From assembly GCA_052168235.1 (NCBI GenBank), contig JBQLZK010000002.1, positions 1 through 64,000 of the forward strand: 64,000 nucleotides of DNA. Reading direction: 5' to 3'. The number at the start of each line of letters is the position of its first letter. Positions within the stretch are counted from its first letter, which is position 1. This document shows, in pieces, positions 35,836 through 42,971 of the stretch. The notes beneath the pieces were generated by a model. It searched no databases. It was not told where the DNA came from and worked only from the letters and a program-made list of their open reading frames with translations. The DNA comes from Thainema sp. GTDB lineage: Bacteria; Cyanobacteriota; Cyanobacteriia; Phormidesmidales; Phormidesmidaceae. The translations under genes and the position numbers were made by a program.

Positions 35836-36201
35836 TTATCGTTCTGTTGATTGCGGTTCTGGTGCAGCTCTTAAAGCTCGTAGTTCTGCTTCTAGTCCTT
35901 CAATCCGCTGCTGGAGCTGACGGTTCGATTCCAATAGTTCTCGCGATTGGCCGCTGAGATAAGGATCGCTTTCCCACCAGTTGATACCGATCTCCTTGGC
36001 TTTATCCACTGAGGAAACGAGTAGACGAATGCGAATTGTCAGCAGTTCTGTAGAACCAACGGAGATCGCAATATCGCCAGCGATGACGATGCCTTTATCG
36101 AGTACCCGCTCCAGCACATCGGCTAGAGTTGAGGCTTGAGTCGATGTGGCGATTGGGCGTTGAGGGCTACTTTGGGGACGGTTATAAGTAGTGCCAGTCA
36201 T
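35836..36201 (-). CDS. gvpJ: Gas vesicle protein GvpJ
   Basis: STLADVLERVLDKGIVIAGDI...GINWWESDPYL. Confidence 0.92.
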   Translation of the reverse strand: MTGTTYNRPQSSPQRPIATSTQASTLADVLERVLDKGIVIAGDIAISVGSTELLTIRIRLLVSSVDKAKEIGINWWESDPYLSGQSRELLESNRQLQQRIEGLEAELRALRAAPEPQSTER

Positions 36202-36280
36202 GGATTACCTAGTTAGTCAATAGACTCAGGGTTGGGACGGCCAGTCTGCGATCGCAGTTCACTTCGCCAAATGGCTAAAG

Positions 36281-37810
36281 CTAGCGAATCTTAAACATGG
36301 ATGGCTTGCCTTGTCCGCCCACCTGAGTGATTAAGCCGAGTTCAGCAAGGCGCTTGAGCGCATTTACAGTTTGGAAACGGTTCAATCCCAAGGCGGCCTC
36401 TAGCTGAGATAGCCGAGCTGGGCCATCCGTGTTGAGCTGCTTGTAAACTGCGATCGCATCGGGGTTTTGGATGCGGGCAGCAGGGTCTGCCGCCGGAGCT
36501 GCTTTGGTGGCCGTTGCTTTTGCAGGTGCAGCTGATTGAGCTACCGCTGATTGAGCCGTTGTCGGCTGATCAGCAACTGGTTTGGCAACGGATTGGGCGA
36601 CAGGCTGTGGACGGTTCGGGCGCGGTTCTGCCTCTAGGGTAGCAGTTGTGGCTGGTGTTGGAGCTGATTCATTGGTTTGCGGTTGAGCAGGGGGAGAGGG
36701 CGGGGAAACTGCGATCGCAGTTTCTTTCTCTACTGTTTCTACTGTTTCTATTAGCTCTATCGTTGCGGAATTAGCTGTATTCGCTGCTCCAGCACCGTTT
36801 TGTGTAGGATTCAGCTTACCGTTTCCATTAATGAACTCAGGATGCTTGGGCTGAGTCAGGGTAGCTTCCGGTTCGGTCAAATCCCGGATTTCGGTAGCTA
36901 AGTCAACACCTGGCACAATCAGGTCGCTGACGATGACGCTGTTGAACAGAGACCAGAGAATCTGACGAGCTTCGTCAACGGGGACAGCGGCGCGTGAGAG
37001 GAGAATGTCGCTGCAGGTATCGCGAAAGTCTACATCCTCCGGAACAACCCGCACATCATGCTCCTGGCAAACCTTGGCAATCATCATGCTGGCTCGCAGG
37101 CTGGACGCGCGTTCTTTGCTCGCTTTCCGCTGAAAGGCTTTTACCATACGTACGATCGCCAGTGCTGCCGAACGCTCAATATTGGTTTTCTGAACCAGGA
37201 TTTCCTGCTGGGTCAGCTCGTCCGGCTCCGGCATATCGATGGTAATTAAGCGATCCATCAGCGCATCTTGCGTACCGTGAACGCCGCAGTATTCTTCAGG
37301 GTTCGAGGTGAAAATGCCGCGAAAATGAGGATTTACTCGGATATATTCGGGCCGATTACCGCTGGGTGGTAGAACAATCAGCTTTTCCTCTAACGCCGAC
37401 AGCAGAACGTTGTTGACTTCAGGCCGAGAGCGGTTGAATTCGTCGTAAACCAGCGTAAATCCTTCCCGACAGGCCAGGGTCAAGCGGGAATCGACCCAGG
37501 TTTGCCGCATTTCGTCTTCGACTTTAATTACACTGTGGATAAAGTTATCCACCACTTTTTTGCGGGTATAGCCGGACTGGTTGCCGATTAGGTCAGAGGT
37601 TTTGTACTCATCATCGCCAAACAGCAGCATGATCGGACGACTGAGCAAATCGGCCAAGTGCATAGCCAATGTCGTTTTCCCCGTACCCGCAGGGCCGCGT
37701 AAATGAATGGAATAGCCCGACTGGAGGTAGCGGAGCGATCGGGCCGCGATGCGCTCAACGCTGGGGGTACTGACGAATTGCCGGGGGCGAGCTTGCAGAA
37801 CCGTGGTCAC
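36281..37810 (-). CDS. gvpN: Gas vesicle AAA+ ATPase GvpN with long C-terminal extension
   Basis: [22 protein letters not shown] and QDALMDR, followed by a Pro/Ala-rich linker and an HTH-like end. Confidence 0.95.
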
Positions 37811-37814
37811 GATG

Positions 37815-39089
37815 TTACCTCATTACCTTATGCACAACATAAACGCCGTCGCGTCGAACCACTTGGCCGTTACAAATTAGCGATCGCAACGCATCTACTG
37901 CTTGAACACGATTGAGATTAAGCTGACGTTCAATTTCATTCAGCCGCAGTCCACCCATTTGGTTCAGGCAGTCATAAACTGCTTGCTCCGTCACATTTAA
38001 CGATGGCTGAGCTACTGCTACTGTGGGAACCGGAATAGGTGTGATCGCAGGTGCCACCTCTTCCAGGGTTAGCGCTGGCAAAGTTGCCACGGCTGTTGCT
38101 TGGGGTGCTGCGGCTACGGGAGCAGACTGAGCAACGGGCTGAGCGGCGACTCGGACAGGTGCAGACTGTGCGGTAGCAGCCGGAACCGAGCGGGGCATAG
38201 CCGATTTCACAGCGACTTTAGCGGTTGTGGGTACAGACCGCTGGGCCACAGGTCGGCTAGGTGGGGGTGGGCTGGGTTGGCCCGACTTTTTGGCGGAGGT
38301 CGCAGGTGCTACAGGTTTAGGAGCAGGGTGGCGAGGTGGCATGGTCGAACGCACCGGGGTGCGCGCTATGATGCCGTCGGATCCCCAAACATAGGCTTGA
38401 ATTTGATTGCGATAGTCTTGCAGTTCGGTTCGAAACTCAGCGAATTCAGCAAACAATGCGTCCACTGCTACGAGACGCTCTTGCTGGCTCTGATCCAACA
38501 TCTGTCGCAGTTCAAAAATCCGCTCTTGGCGCAGCACGTCGAGTTCCAGTAAATAAGTTTCGACATCAGCTTGGAGCTGCTGCACAAACTGAGTCAGTTC
38601 CTGTTGCTGCTGGGCACTCATGGCAACGCGATCGTGACGGTGCTGGGCCAATTGAACCTGGGTAATCGTTTGCAGAGCTTGAACCCTAGCTTGGAGATCG
38701 CTGCGTAGCTCGGCTACAGCCTGCTGCATTTCAGCATGAAACTGGCTGAGCGTTTGCGAGACTTCCTGTGCCATCAGAACGCGATCTGCTGCCGTCAACG
38801 ATAGGAAATCAGCCGTTTCGGCTCGTAGAGATTCAACAAACTGGTGGAGTCGCTCGGCAACTTCAACACGGCGCACCTGCCGATCTTGAGCGGTCTGATT
38901 CAAAAAGGCTTGCGTGTCTTGCTGAAGCGCAAACGTGAACTGGCTCAAGTCATCTCGCACCTGTGCGGCTTGAATCGTGCGATCAATAGAGAAGGCAGCC
39001 AGAATATCCTGCACCTGCTGCTGCCGATTGAGAATTTCAGCCTGGCGATGTTGCCGCTGCTCTTGCCACTGTGCCTGGAGTGAAGTCAC
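37815..39089 (-). CDS. gvpC: Gas vesicle protein GvpC with C-terminal extension
   Basis: About five 33-aa helical repeats (e.g. [33 protein letters not shown]); lies between gvpA and gvpN. Confidence 0.85.
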
Positions 39090-39237
39090 GGGCGCGACCT
39101 CCTAAGTACGCTTCTTAAACGGGTAAATTGCGAATGAGCTAATCGTTGAAAATGTAGCTTTGAGAATTTAGCTGTCGAAAATTTTGGATGTTGAGAATTA
39201 GTTTTTGGCAACTAAATTAAAAACTTGAACTCAAAAA

Positions 39238-39292
39238 AAGGGGAAAGGATGGACACGCAATTAGCATAGTTGCGATCGCATCTTTTCCCCTT
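39238..39292 (-). terminator. Stem-loop downstream of gvpA
   Basis: AAGGGGAAAGGATG...CATCTTTTCCCCTT stem followed by a U-run on the minus strand. Confidence 0.6.
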
Positions 39293-39298
39293 GTGTGA

Positions 39299-39517
39299 TT
39301 AAGCGTTAGGAACAGCAGCTTGTGCGGTCAAACCAACTGCTTCGGCATATTTCAGATAGGTTTCAACAGAAGCGATAACGACGCGAGCTTCTACAGCGAG
39401 AAGTTCGATACCTACCAGAGATACACGAACCCATGCGTCAACTACGATGCCTTTGTCGAGAATGCGGTCAACAACTTCAGCTAGGCTAGAGGAGGAATTA
39501 ACTTTTTCAACTGCCAT
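39299..39517 (-). CDS. gvpA: Gas vesicle structural protein GvpA
   Basis: [40 protein letters not shown]. Confidence 0.99.
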
Positions 39518-39931: not shown

Positions 39932-40555
39932 TTATCCACTTGCCGGATTGTTTGGGTGGAGCTGATCGGTTTGCCAATTGGCCGGATTTGTCTGGATGTA
40001 GTATCGAATCTGCTCTAGCGATTCTTTGTTACGGATAATGTGTTCGTAATAATTGCGCTGCCAAACGGGGGTTCTGGGTGTATTTCTCAGGAGATTAATG
40101 CGTTTAGTTGCCGTCGATTTGAATCCGGTTATGAATGACGATAATGAACGTGGCCGCATGAATGGCGTCACATGTTGTATGGGTGAATGACCGTTCTGTA
40201 GGGGCGAATGGCCATTCGCCCCTACGGGATTTTGCGGCTGATTAGACACCTGGGATGAATTATCTGATACCTGTTGTGATGTTTTGTCCTGAATAAATAC
40301 GATGCCGTGAATGTGATTAGGCATGATAACCCAGGCATCCAAATTGATTTCTTGTCGGATATTTTGCGATCGCAACCATTCCTCGGCAACAATTTGCCCC
40401 AATGAATCTAATTGCATTTTGCCATCAACAATATCGCCGAATAAACATTCGCGTTGATGAGTGCAAATGGTAATGAAATACGCGCCTGGTGATGAATAAT
40501 CGTATCCGTTGAGGCGAATGGAACGACGATGATGTTTATCCGGGTTGTATTTCAT
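39932..40555 (-). mobile_element. REP-associated tyrosine transposase (RAYT, Y1 HUH family)
   Basis: RRSIRL, YFITICT, VIMPNHIHG (HUH), WQRNYYEHIIR and YIQTNP (catalytic Tyr); cognate REP upstream. Confidence 0.93.
40198..40225. repeat. REP palindrome inside the RAYT coding sequence
   Basis: Perfect 28-bp palindrome GTAGGGGCGAATGGCCATTCGCCCCTAC. Confidence 0.9.
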
Positions 40556-40642
40556 GCGAGATGGATTTGATGCACCAATGATTTAGGATGCCCATGTTGT
40601 TATTTGAATTCGTAACCCTTGTTGGAAGCACCATAACGATAT

Positions 40643-40670
40643 GTAGGGGCGAATGGCCATTCGCCCCTAC
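40643..40670. repeat. REP palindrome upstream of RAYT
   Basis: Identical to 40198-40225. Confidence 0.9.
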
Positions 40671-40797
40671 GGGGTGTTTGCACTATCCCAGATCCCCAAT
40701 CATGATTGGTGCCAGGTATCGGATCTCCGGAACGATGATTCTTCGTAAGGAACAGCCCTGGAAATAAAAGTTTAGGAGAAACGGAAAGCTTTATGCC

Positions 40798-42570
40798 TTA
40801 CACTTTACAAGTCTGGATGCGAGAGAAGAGACTCCCCTCCCCCGACCCACACCACAAAACCCACACCCACTCCCACTCCCCGAAAGGGAGGTGGCCTTGG
40901 GGTGCTGAGGTGCTAAATGTTACATCAAAGTAGTAAATATACGAGCCGTTCACTCTCCATCCAGTGCGATCGCAGAATTCTCCCCAAATCTTATCACCTG
41001 GATATTTCCCGTCGAGCTTGGCTCCACACTGGACGTAAATTTCTTTTTGCACGCTGAAGCCAAATTGACCGTTGCTGTACTTCACCCACAGTCGATCTAT
41101 CGTTTTCAGATCCGCACAGGGGAAGTTTAAGAGTTCTTCTGATTTAAGCAAGTCGCCTGATTTCTTCCCAACTGCCCGGATCATCACTTCGTAGGTTTCT
41201 TTGTCCGCCTCTTCCCACTCACCCGCCTTCAGCAAATCCCGCAATCGCGTATAGTTAATCCCCTTGTCCGAAGCCAAGCTAACTGTTTCTGCGATTTCAT
41301 GGAGCGCACTTTCTACGGCACTATGCATATGCGCCCATAAATGAATCGTGCTGTTAAATACTTTTTCCCCAAGGAGAGCTTTTTCTTTGCTATCCAAACC
41401 TGATAAAGCATGTTGCGCACTTGTTTCTGTGCTTACCTGTAGTTCGTAATTAGTTGCATTTTTTTCAGGTGTGGATGAAAACGAGCCTTTAGAAGCTTGG
41501 GAAGGTTCTAAGATGTGCGCTTCAATCTTCTGCACATCCTCATCCCGCAGTTGCTTCCGATCTTGAATTCGCTTCAGTTTTCGTCGCTGTAACTCATCCA
41601 GCGGATACTGCTGAGCAATCGCGGTCTGAAATGCACGCTGATAAAACTCAACGCGCTCTTTCAGTTCCCTAAACGGCTGAAGGATAGACGATTCAATCGC
41701 TTTCGCATCAGTTTCAGATAAATTTAACTCATCCCGAATATCGTCCAAATCTAGCCGATCCAGCTCGCTAATGAATCCCTGATTTTCCTGAACAACTCGC
41801 TCTACCTCTTGCCGATAGCGCAACTTCGGATCGCCAAGCGCCACCTTTGCCAACTCAATCCGAAATCCCTCGTCCTTCAAAACAATGATTTTTGGAGACA
41901 TCGCAGGTGCTGCTTCTTTCACCTTTAGCTCAGCATACTGGTGCAGCTCATCCACTGAGATTTGCCCGTCTTTATTCAGGTCGGCTGCCCCTGTCTCAAT
42001 ACCTTCAACCAAATAGCGCGTGTAAATCGACAAGTCTGAACCCGGTTGCTCAAATGAATATTGCACCGCACTTGAAGAAGTCAGCACGACTCTTCCCTCT
42101 GCACCAAGCTGTTCAACCAGATTTAATGCTCCATCATCTTTAGCGGTTAAATTACCAAACGCACCACTAAAGCAACAGTCCAAAATCACCACCTGCCGCC
42201 GCGCCCGACTCCGCAAAATGCACTCATGCACAAACGCAGCATCAAGCGCAGTTGAACTAATCAAAAAATCACCATCTTTGCGGGTATTACTGGCTGCAAA
42301 ATACAGCTTGCCTCGATCATCTTTGACCCCATGACCCGAAAAATAGAGCAGCGCTAGATCATCTCGTTGCCGTCGTCGGAACCAGGTTTCAATTGTTGCA
42401 GCGATTTCCCCATTAGTTTGGTCAATTAGTGTTTGTACGTCATCGAAGCAGCCGATTTCTGGATTCTGCAAAACTGCCTGCAACGCTACTACATCCTTCG
42501 GTGCCGCAGGTAATGCCTTGAATCCTTTTTGATATTGACTGGTGCCGATGAGCAGTGCCGTTTTCGCCAT
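40798..42570 (-). CDS. Caspase-like (peptidase C14) protease with C-terminal GUN4-like domain
   Basis: ALLIG, YFSGHG and ILDCCFSG (His/Cys dyad). C-terminal YTRLRDLLKAGEWEEADKET, FPCADLKTIDRLWVKYSNGQFGFSVQ and APQGHLP. Confidence 0.92.
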   Translation of the reverse strand: MAKTALLIGTSQYQKGFKALPAAPKDVVALQAVLQNPEIGCFDDVQTLIDQTNGEIAATIETWFRRRQRDDLALLYFSGHGVKDDRGKLYFAASNTRKDGDFLISSTALDAAFVHECILRSRARRQVVILDCCFSGAFGNLTAKDDGALNLVEQLGAEGRVVLTSSSAVQYSFEQPGSDLSIYTRYLVEGIETGAADLNKDGQISVDELHQYAELKVKEAAPAMSPKIIVLKDEGFRIELAKVALGDPKLRYRQEVERVVQENQGFISELDRLDLDDIRDELNLSETDAKAIESSILQPFRELKERVEFYQRAFQTAIAQQYPLDELQRRKLKRIQDRKQLRDEDVQKIEAHILEPSQASKGSFSSTPEKNATNYELQVSTETSAQHALSGLDSKEKALLGEKVFNSTIHLWAHMHSAVESALHEIAETVSLASDKGINYTRLRDLLKAGEWEEADKETYEVMIRAVGKKSGDLLKSEELLNFPCADLKTIDRLWVKYSNGQFGFSVQKEIYVQCGAKLDGKYPGDKIWGEFCDRTGWRVNGSYIYYFDVTFSTSAPQGHLPFGEWEWVWVLWCGSGEGSLFSRIQTCKV

Positions 42571-42971
42571 TAACGCGGATTGATGATGTTGACCTTTATT
42601 TTAGAGAGTCGCAGCCGCTCAATGGTTTGAATCTGTTGTTCCAAATCCTTTTGCGTTTGGTACACCAGTTTATAGCGTGCGCCATCTTCTTCGTACTCAA
42701 TTTCCTTTAGTCTGCCCGGAAACCGATTACCAAGGAACTCCAGCACCGTTCTGGCATTTGCCCACGTCACCTCTGCAAACAAAATTCCTTGCAGAAAAGC
42801 CCCAACACCCTTGCTACCTTCAGGTACTTCAGACTCTCTCGCGAGACGGGATTCCAAAGCAACCTCACGGATTTCATCAGCCAAATTCAACGTGTCTTGC
42901 TCTAGCTGTTCTGGATCATCATTTAGACCAGCCTGGTTGATATCAATCAAAATTTGAAAGGTTTCAGTCAT
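42570..42971 (-). CDS. Small caspase-partner protein, EACC1-like
   Basis: PEQLEQDTLNLADEI...VPEGSKG followed by a hydrophobic stretch; stop overlaps the caspase ATG. Family assignment from recall. Confidence 0.65.
   Translation of the reverse strand: MTETFQILIDINQAGLNDDPEQLEQDTLNLADEIREVALESRLARESEVPEGSKGVGAFLQGILFAEVTWANARTVLEFLGNRFPGRLKEIEYEEDGARYKLVYQTQKDLEQQIQTIERLRLSKIKVNIINPR

Follow-up and report, generated by a model that had tools for sequence, protein, structure and literature searches.

The stretch of DNA analysed here (the window) comprises 64,000 nucleotides (nt) of the cyanobacterium Thainema sp. (GenBank assembly GCA_052168235.1, contig JBQLZK010000002.1, positions 1 to 64,000) and contains a gene that encodes a caspase fused to a C-terminal GUN4 domain (Table 1). 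The protein, translated from its open reading frame (ORF), ends in ...APQGHLPFGEWEWVWVLWCGSGEGSLFSRIQTCKV*. Near its 3′ end, the gene carries a G-rich, A-poor segment of 54 nt, bounded by codons for a conserved GHLP motif on one side and for a conserved terminal helix on the other. An earlier, sequence-only reading suggested that this segment may be a diversified variable region, written either in trans by a diversity-generating retroelement (DGR) or by recombination linked to a G-quadruplex (G4). We find that it is an extreme example of a trend common to the family, among the G-richest loops of its kind, and that it is not the variable region of a DGR or a site of G4 recombination.

Table 1. 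The caspase–GUN4 gene, its parts and the gene upstream
Feature	Position in the window	Strand	Basis
Caspase–GUN4 gene, EACC1-associated caspase type, 590 aa	40798..42570	-	ORF, Pfam, NCBIfam
Caspase domain, Peptidase_C14, residues 3–219	41914..42564	-	Pfam (3.8e-18), NCBIfam
GUN4 domain through to the stop codon	40798..41271	-	Pfam; genome match C2:40858-41271
GHLP codons, residues 559–562, conserved 5′ anchor	40885..40896	-	Alignment, phmmer
G-rich, A-poor 54 nt encoding FGEWEWVWVLWCGSGEGS, residues 563–580, variable loop	40831..40884	-	Composition, AlphaFold2, family comparison
Terminal helix LFSRIQTCKV and stop codon, conserved 3′ anchor	40798..40830	-	Recurrence in homologues, AlphaFold2 helix
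133-aa gene upstream, its stop overlapping the caspase start	42570..42971	-	ORF

The caspase domain matches the NCBIfam model NF047832 (‘caspase, EACC1-associated type’) at 181.7 bits (cut-off 140) and contains YFSGHG and DCCFSG, which we take to be the His/Cys catalytic motifs. The Pfam GUN4 model (PF05419) covers residues 434–571 (7.1e-39; 133.6 bits against a cut-off of 29.2; profile positions 2–133 of 141). Other Pfam matches, to CHAT and EF-hand, are both below cut-off, and there is no CLec or FGE-sulfatase domain among the Pfam matches on the protein. An EF-hand-like loop, DLNKDGQISVDELHQY (residues 195–210, window positions ~41941–41988, reverse strand), is found at the end of the caspase domain; its EF-hand_5 score of 20.9 bits does not reach the cut-off of 25.9.

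In phmmer searches, the domain aligns to the GUN4 structures 1z3x, 4ykb and 1y6i of the Protein Data Bank (E values 3e-17 to 3.5e-14), with the alignment running to the first residue after GHLP, equivalent to residue 209 of SynGUN4. A model of the domain was built with AlphaFold2 from an alignment of 33 sequences (predicted local distance difference test (pLDDT) 80, predicted template modelling score 0.79), in which GHLP corresponds to G132, H133, L134 and P135, each at least 90% conserved. The model matches 4xkb and 1z3x with a Z score of 18.3 (model residues 1–163 on chain residues 81–233), and VIA-align comparison with 4xkb, 1z3x, 7e2t and 1y6i gave Z scores of 17–18.3 over 143–147 residues (r.m.s.d. 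2.4–2.7). The domain as modelled has the ‘cupped hand’ helical GUN4 fold, with the core domain covered whole. The pLDDT falls below 50 in one stretch only, domain residues 137–151 (protein residues 564–578), which lies inside the segment; the terminal helix follows at model residues 154–160.

The position of the segment within this fold corresponds to a site with a described function in canonical GUN4. There, the equivalent sequence is the C-terminal end of the hydrophobic α6/α7 loop, which lies on the ‘greasy palm’ and is mobile upon porphyrin binding (PMC1084334). According to Verdecia et al. 2005 (PMC1084334), Pro208 and Leu210 of SynGUN4 are located in the hydrophobic palm; in their model, Arg214 and Arg217, where the α6/α7 loop ends, hold the propionates of the porphyrin. 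The ligand-contact LxNxLR motif, which includes Asn211 and Arg214, directly follows GHLP and leads into helix α7; Asn211/Asn219 is needed for bilin binding (Rockwell et al. 2023, PMC10156173). The true Gun4 of the genome, on contig C23, reads GHLP-LSNQLR, whereas the caspase–GUN4 protein reads GHLP-FGEWEW; it lacks LxNxLR after GHLP, the mark of an orthologue of the Mg-chelatase cofactor. Arg214 and Arg217 have no counterpart either, a Trp-, Gly- and Val-rich sequence standing in their place. By alignment, the segment occupies the LxNxLR ligand-contact position of canonical GUN4, between GHLP and the last helix. GUN4 paralogues lacking the motif are known (for instance Synechocystis sll1380), and the present domain is like them in its GUN4 core fold, in keeping GHLP and in having lost LxNxLR; a loss of bilin binding has been proposed for such paralogues (PMC10156173). 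In the accessible text of that study, four motif residues are scored simply as present or absent, whereas here the site holds a low-complexity insert of 9–44 residues with a synonymous G+T bias and a bimodal turnover.

The site is variable throughout the family. The genome contains nine GUN4 matches, and all of their tails after GHLP differ. A domain search with residues 430–590 retrieved 2,013 proteins at E ≤ 1e-10 among 2,185 candidates, and in the best 120 of these 2,013 the inserts at GHLP sites, located by regular expression, vary greatly in length and sequence. The inserts lie between GHLP and a conserved terminal helix (LFSRI[EQ]TCK[LV], including LFSRIETCKL; SSLASRLVKCNI; or LLSHRDL) and show a visible enrichment in Gly, Trp, Val, Phe and Cys. 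In GUN4 domains fused to caspases, TIR domains and kinases, LxNxLR is replaced by an insert rich in these residues, followed by the terminal helix. For analysis at the DNA level we assembled 72 loops from 71 loci, the loop of the window included, and used the 330 nt upstream of each as its core; two nested duplicates were excluded. The 72 loops are 9–44 residues long (median 20), and none of the 71 others retains LxNxLR. Gly makes up 18.1% of loop residues and 8.6% of core residues, Val 10.9% and 6.2%, and Lys 1.8% and 8.2%, respectively. That the segment is a hypervariable ligand-binding site, as the sequence-only reading suggested, holds in so far as it sits at the canonical ligand-contact spot and varies extremely in length and sequence across the family; the mechanisms of diversification proposed with it are unsupported, as detailed below.

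A search for orthologues of the protein gave matches in 37 of 41 genomes (40 relatives and its own), the best full-length match being 48% identical. In the genome of the same genus, the matches listed cover the GUN4 part only, the best of them spanning residues 431–563 at 72% identity. Scans of genome contigs and metagenome contigs yielded 37 loci (best 73%) and 30 loci (best 67%), and the cluster of the protein at 90% identity has one member. Several kinases of the family (P0003 to P0010, P0014 and others) contain two to four tandem GUN4 domains, with a different loop in each. The linkers after each of their terminal helices are Pro/Gln-rich (LFPVQERQPQIIPTPQPVN), and therefore not all variable segments of these proteins are rich in Gly, Val, Trp, Phe and Cys.

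Ten clusters at 90% identity were examined, each of 7–40 members (up to 15 compared per cluster), from Planktothrix, Aphanizomenon, Dolichospermum, Sphaerospermopsis and metagenomes. The loops in these clusters are nearly invariant, with 0–2 substitutions and one deletion of seven residues, whereas neighbouring residues vary; in these homologues, the local variation among strains that the sequence-only reading looked for is not borne out. We next consider 129 distinct domain instances, 106 pairs of which have a core identity of 0.8 to <1.0. Loop identity is at least 0.8 in 84 of these pairs and below 0.3 in the other 22, with no pair between 0.3 and 0.8. Loops that are kept are as conserved as their cores (0.98 against 0.975, 0.97 against 0.93, 0.875 against 0.867 and 0.88 against 0.83), and among the 129 instances no pair with a core identity below 0.8 reached a loop identity of 0.8 or more. 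Judged by these sequence comparisons, the loops are inherited stably and then replaced wholesale by new sequence; the mode is neither continuous hypermutation nor cassette shuffling.

Individual events are visible at some loci. Locus L061 carries an in-frame, G-rich insertion of 30 nt relative to L062, L150 and L151 in otherwise near-identical DNA, and L150 carries a 9-nt tandem duplication. Internal direct repeats longer than those of 95% of composition-matched shuffles occur in 12 of 65 loops and in 1 of 65 core windows. Runs of five or more G are found at 7.9 per kb in loops and 0.5 per kb in cores, and both alternative reading frames are free of stop codons in 16 of 64 loops, compared with 7.8% of 320 core windows. 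At loci L055, L030 and L063, codons of GHLP or of the terminal helix are duplicated within the loop. Across these three loci and L041, the repeated elements are either anchor motifs (GHLP twice, or ISSISSLASRL twice) or an ELLRD-type unit present three times, so that the anchors may serve as points of slippage or recombination. In the Planktothrix agardhii cluster, the GUN4 domains of P0122 and P0134 share 99% identity in the 100 residues that precede GHLP but have unrelated loops, and their terminal helices are of different types (IFSRVETC and LASRLVDC), suggesting a recombination breakpoint at GHLP. A simple compensated frameshift was considered as a route of replacement and is unsupported by alignments and three-frame translations of L121/L123, L001/L041 and three other pairs.

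Contigs from sequencing runs were also compared with the locus. Those of run X1 contain two pieces identical to the window (40923–41073 and 41247–41526), neither of which extends over the loop, and in none of the runs does a near-identical contig cover 40831–40884. A contig of X3 (record 15) aligns to 40708–41272 with 79 differences and 13 gaps, including at least 15 substitutions and at least 7 gaps (9 nt) within 40830–40882; it comes from a diverged relative and is not a strain allele.

The segment in the window has the unusual composition that the sequence-only reading described. Its coding strand consists of 33 G, 15 T, 4 A and 2 C. G is the last base in 14 of its 18 codons, compared with a fraction of 0.29 over the rest of the gene. 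Windows of 54 nt with at least 33 G or C number 1,263 of 15,062,678 in this genome of 7.54 Mb (GC content 0.50). The encoded amino acids, with 5 Trp, 4 Gly, 3 Glu and 2 Val, account for much of the G, and synonymous choice is skewed besides: each of the 4 Gly codons is GGG, a choice made in 8 of 36 cases over the remainder of the gene (P ~0.0024), and each of the 3 Glu codons is GAG, for which the corresponding figure is 18 of 45 (P ~0.064). Among the 72 loops, that of the window ranks second by G fraction and seventeenth lowest by A, and it is open in all three frames. No terminator-like site is present within 40400–41000. A (GGGAGT)n hexamer repeat was considered for this loop and rejected, the internal repetition being within the expectation from composition (P = 0.165 for the match at period 6 and P = 0.28 for the longest direct repeat).

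The segment also fits the pattern of a G4, with a canonical (G3+N1-7)4 motif on the coding strand from nt 1689 of the gene. This agrees with a mechanism in which the motif would trigger replacement of the loop from donor copies by recombination or gene conversion, as in antigenic variation at pilE, and two further observations are in its favour: loops are replaced wholesale and not gradually, and the Planktothrix pair described above, with matching cores but unrelated loops and another helix type, looks recombinational. However, the motif recurs in only 3 of the 71 other loops, and no donor-like copy of the loop is found in the genome. The lack of any pair combining diverged cores with similar loops gives no sign of a shared pool of cassettes. 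The motif alone is not rare, since the genome contains 317 clusters of such motifs (~42 per Mb), and the RNA fold of the region is ordinary (z = -1.23; 28 of 200 shuffles fold equally well). We therefore regard G4-directed recombination, the second mechanism of the sequence-only reading, as very improbable here.

The preference for codons ending in G proved to be the local form of an excess of G+T on the coding strand that extends across the family. The DNA of the 71 other loops is composed of 0.358 G, 0.357 T, 0.161 A and 0.124 C, compared with 0.276, 0.245, 0.298 and 0.181 in the cores, and is G+T-rich at all three codon positions. The bias is present at synonymous sites: four-fold sites of loops (n = 717) show T 0.411, G 0.291, A 0.159 and C 0.138, and those of cores (n = 2,924) T 0.238, G 0.221, A 0.247 and C 0.293. 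The median G+T fraction at such sites is 0.71 in loops and 0.45 in cores, and in 55 of the 66 loops with at least five four-fold sites the value is higher than in the corresponding core (Wilcoxon, 3.8e-10; owing to relatedness among the loci, P values for the bias overstate independence). The shift to G or T endings is seen in every one of the 8 four-fold and 12 two-fold codon families tested (Mantel–Haenszel odds ratios 2.67 and 2.37).

Localized, strand-asymmetric deamination could leave such a signature, if the non-template strand were single-stranded in an R-loop or G4 and C>T together with A>G changes drove a skew from amino to keto bases. The four-fold sites are consistent with this, as the loss of C matches the gain of T and the loss of A matches the gain of G, and the cores of the same genes are without the skew. 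However, point mutation explains neither the variation in length nor the missing intermediates, and the one clear event, the insertion at L061, was G-rich already at its origin; close DNA pairs are too few to polarize substitutions. Deamination as the cause is, in our judgement, quite unlikely. Of a similar, low order of plausibility is a hotspot, independent of any reverse transcriptase, that would write new sequence into the ligand-contact loop in rare bursts and so be a functional analogue of a DGR. It would require a localized and strand-asymmetric process, acting through amino-to-keto changes on the non-template strand or through G/T-biased insertion synthesis, and would account for the G+T excess in all 20 codon families, for the pattern of loops either kept or replaced and for the lack of shared cassettes.

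A DGR proper would act in trans, its reverse transcriptase copying a template repeat into the 3′ end of the gene and making errors specifically at adenines. Superficially, the segment resembles its product: it is poor in A and, in a gene of the caspase type, stands at the 3′ end. Among the targets of cyanobacterial DGRs are caspase, kinase and TIR proteins, and targets may be remote (PMC7517822); pairs of EACC1 and a protease can be linked to DGRs (bioRxiv 10.1101/2025.11.14.688446). The resemblance to DGR variable regions in CLec domains extends to a C-terminal ligand-binding module with a localized variable patch, to the kinds of N-terminal signalling domain and to families of several paralogues (Vallota-Eastman et al. 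2020, PMC7517822). However, the whole assembly (205 contigs, 99.99% complete) contains neither a template repeat nor a DGR-type reverse transcriptase. Against it, blastn at E ≤ 10 returned the locus itself, a single 40-nt match of 80% identity to the tail of a paralogue, and chance matches. In a scan tolerant of changes at A, the best sites other than the locus still had non-A mismatches, numbering 7 over 54 nt, 29 over 114 nt and 41 over 147 nt. Both flanks occur together only at the locus and at one coding paralogue on contig C49, and the non-coding template differing at adenines, which the sequence-only reading proposed to look for, was not found. The two RVT_1 matches of the genome (C9:61207-61827 and C33:66472-67092; loci L016 and L017) are both fusions of reverse transcriptase and Cas1, of 658 and 735 residues, with Cas1 parts matching at 5.4e-92 and 1.5e-87, implying acquisition of RNA spacers by CRISPR systems.

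The properties of the loops also differ from those of DGR variable regions. The fold is that of GUN4 and not CLec; all cyanobacterial DGR variable proteins examined in PMC7517822 carry the variable region in CLec, and in the accessible text of that paper GUN4 appears solely as an accessory N-terminal domain. Loop length is not fixed, homologous loops lack variation at the level of strains within the ten clusters, and C is as depleted as A, also at four-fold sites, contrary to what adenine mutagenesis predicts. Together, these results leave almost no probability for a DGR acting on this gene.

The 54 nt are probably best described as a lineage-variable, low-complexity loop at the mouth of the pocket of an effector-fused, sensor-type GUN4 domain, subject to turnover driven by insertions and deletions. 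New loops would arise by slippage and by insertions and deletions in G/T-rich, low-complexity DNA, and selection would retain only peptides that are free of stops and hydrophobic or Gly-rich enough to lie over a hydrophobic pocket. Codons made of G and T only encode just Gly, Val, Trp, Cys, Leu and Phe, whatever the frame, which would explain why the bias is common to all three codon positions. The loop may then reshape or close the mouth of the ligand pocket and set what the sensor domain responds to. It is also conceivable, if unlikely, that the loop is a relic without function: an unconstrained spacer, left after the paralogues lost tetrapyrrole binding, whose composition reflects a local mutational process. 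The loss of LxNxLR in all 71 loops fits this, as do the loss of bilin binding proposed for paralogues (PMC10156173), the extreme variation in sequence and length, the low confidence of the AlphaFold2 model at the loop and the bias at synonymous sites, which points to a cause at the DNA level. However, among close relatives the conservation of the loop equals or exceeds that of the core (as in the pairs at 0.97 against 0.93 and 0.88 against 0.83), and the loops are almost invariant in ten clusters whose flanks vary. Both findings speak for purifying selection between replacements. The composition is, moreover, consistently hydrophobic or Gly-rich and not random.

Several observations weigh against a pocket loop renewed by slippage. 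Slippage is not shown for the copy in the window, as its internal repetition is no more than its composition gives, and significant repeats are confined to the 12 of 65 loops mentioned above. For L121/L123 and L001/L041, the two closest DNA pairs whose loops have been replaced, the route of replacement is not evident from alignment. The pairs behind the bimodal distribution are not independent, since they represent a small number of related lineages (Aphanizomenon, Dolichospermum, Planktothrix and others), and 26 GHLP sites without a recognizable terminal-helix pattern were excluded from the loop set. With a pLDDT below 50, the modelled geometry of the loop is unusable. Finally, slippage followed by a selective filter is our inference as to the cause of the synonymous G+T bias, which otherwise stands as an unexplained bias of composition.

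The gene is an ordinary member of an architecture already described, and the loss of LxNxLR in paralogues has likewise been published (PMC10156173). In the two-gene layout of these systems, EACC1 is followed by a caspase whose C-terminal domain varies (Kaur et al. 2020, eLife, PMC7159879). GUN4 is listed in the same paper as a domain specific to cyanobacteria and found joined to caspases, kinases, trypsin and TIR. In another member, the caspase, once its fused sensor has been triggered, cleaves EACC1 into a pore-former (bioRxiv 10.1101/2025.11.14.688446); the example tested in that preprint has an Avs-type sensor, whereas here the domain is GUN4. The present locus is like the described systems in its NF047832 match above cut-off, in the small conserved gene overlapping the caspase start and in its variable C-terminal domain (PMC7159879). 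Homologues of the 133-residue upstream gene stand directly upstream of the caspase homologue at 15 of 29 loci of relatives (tblastn), and this gene is probably the EACC1 partner of the caspase. It counts against such a partnership, and sets the locus apart from the described systems, that the gene product matches no Pfam or NCBIfam model, EACC1 included. By analogy, the GUN4 sensor would gate the N-terminal caspase, which would in turn cleave the EACC1-like pore-former encoded upstream.

This analysis removes a tempting assignment of the caspase–GUN4 tail as a DGR target or G4 switch, and places the odd sequence at the ligand-contact position of a GUN4 domain, where EACC1–caspase systems carry their sensor. 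If the loop sets what the sensor recognizes, its lineage-specific replacement would be one route by which cyanobacterial abortive-infection or stress modules alter their specificity without a retroelement. The synonymous G+T bias and the all-or-none turnover are measurable and family-wide, and they are unexplained. In the GUN4 literature searched, we found neither of these two features described, nor the low-complexity insert at this site, and no paper on hypervariable or variable-loop GUN4 was among the leading results of the literature search.

Other features adjoin the locus. A gas-vesicle cluster (35836..39517, reverse strand), immediately beside the caspase locus, includes two Gas_vesicle (PF00741) genes (39299..39517 and 35836..36201), a gene for an AAA_5 protein of 509 residues with a long Pro/Ala-rich tail, and a gene for a Gln-rich protein of 424 residues with no Pfam match. 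Between this cluster and the caspase–GUN4 gene, a perfect palindrome, GTAGGGGCGAATGGCCATTCGCCCCTAC, is located at 40643–40672, ~90 nt from a gene of 207 codons (39932..40555, reverse strand). The product of the latter matches the REP-associated tyrosine transposase (RAYT) model NF047646 at 72.4 bits, below the cut-off of 80, and also Y1_Tnp (PF01797). The 22-nt core of the palindrome is present in 45 copies on 31 contigs of the genome and forms a spike of read depth in two soil-metagenome runs. Palindrome and gene look like a pair of a repetitive extragenic palindrome (REP) and its RAYT.

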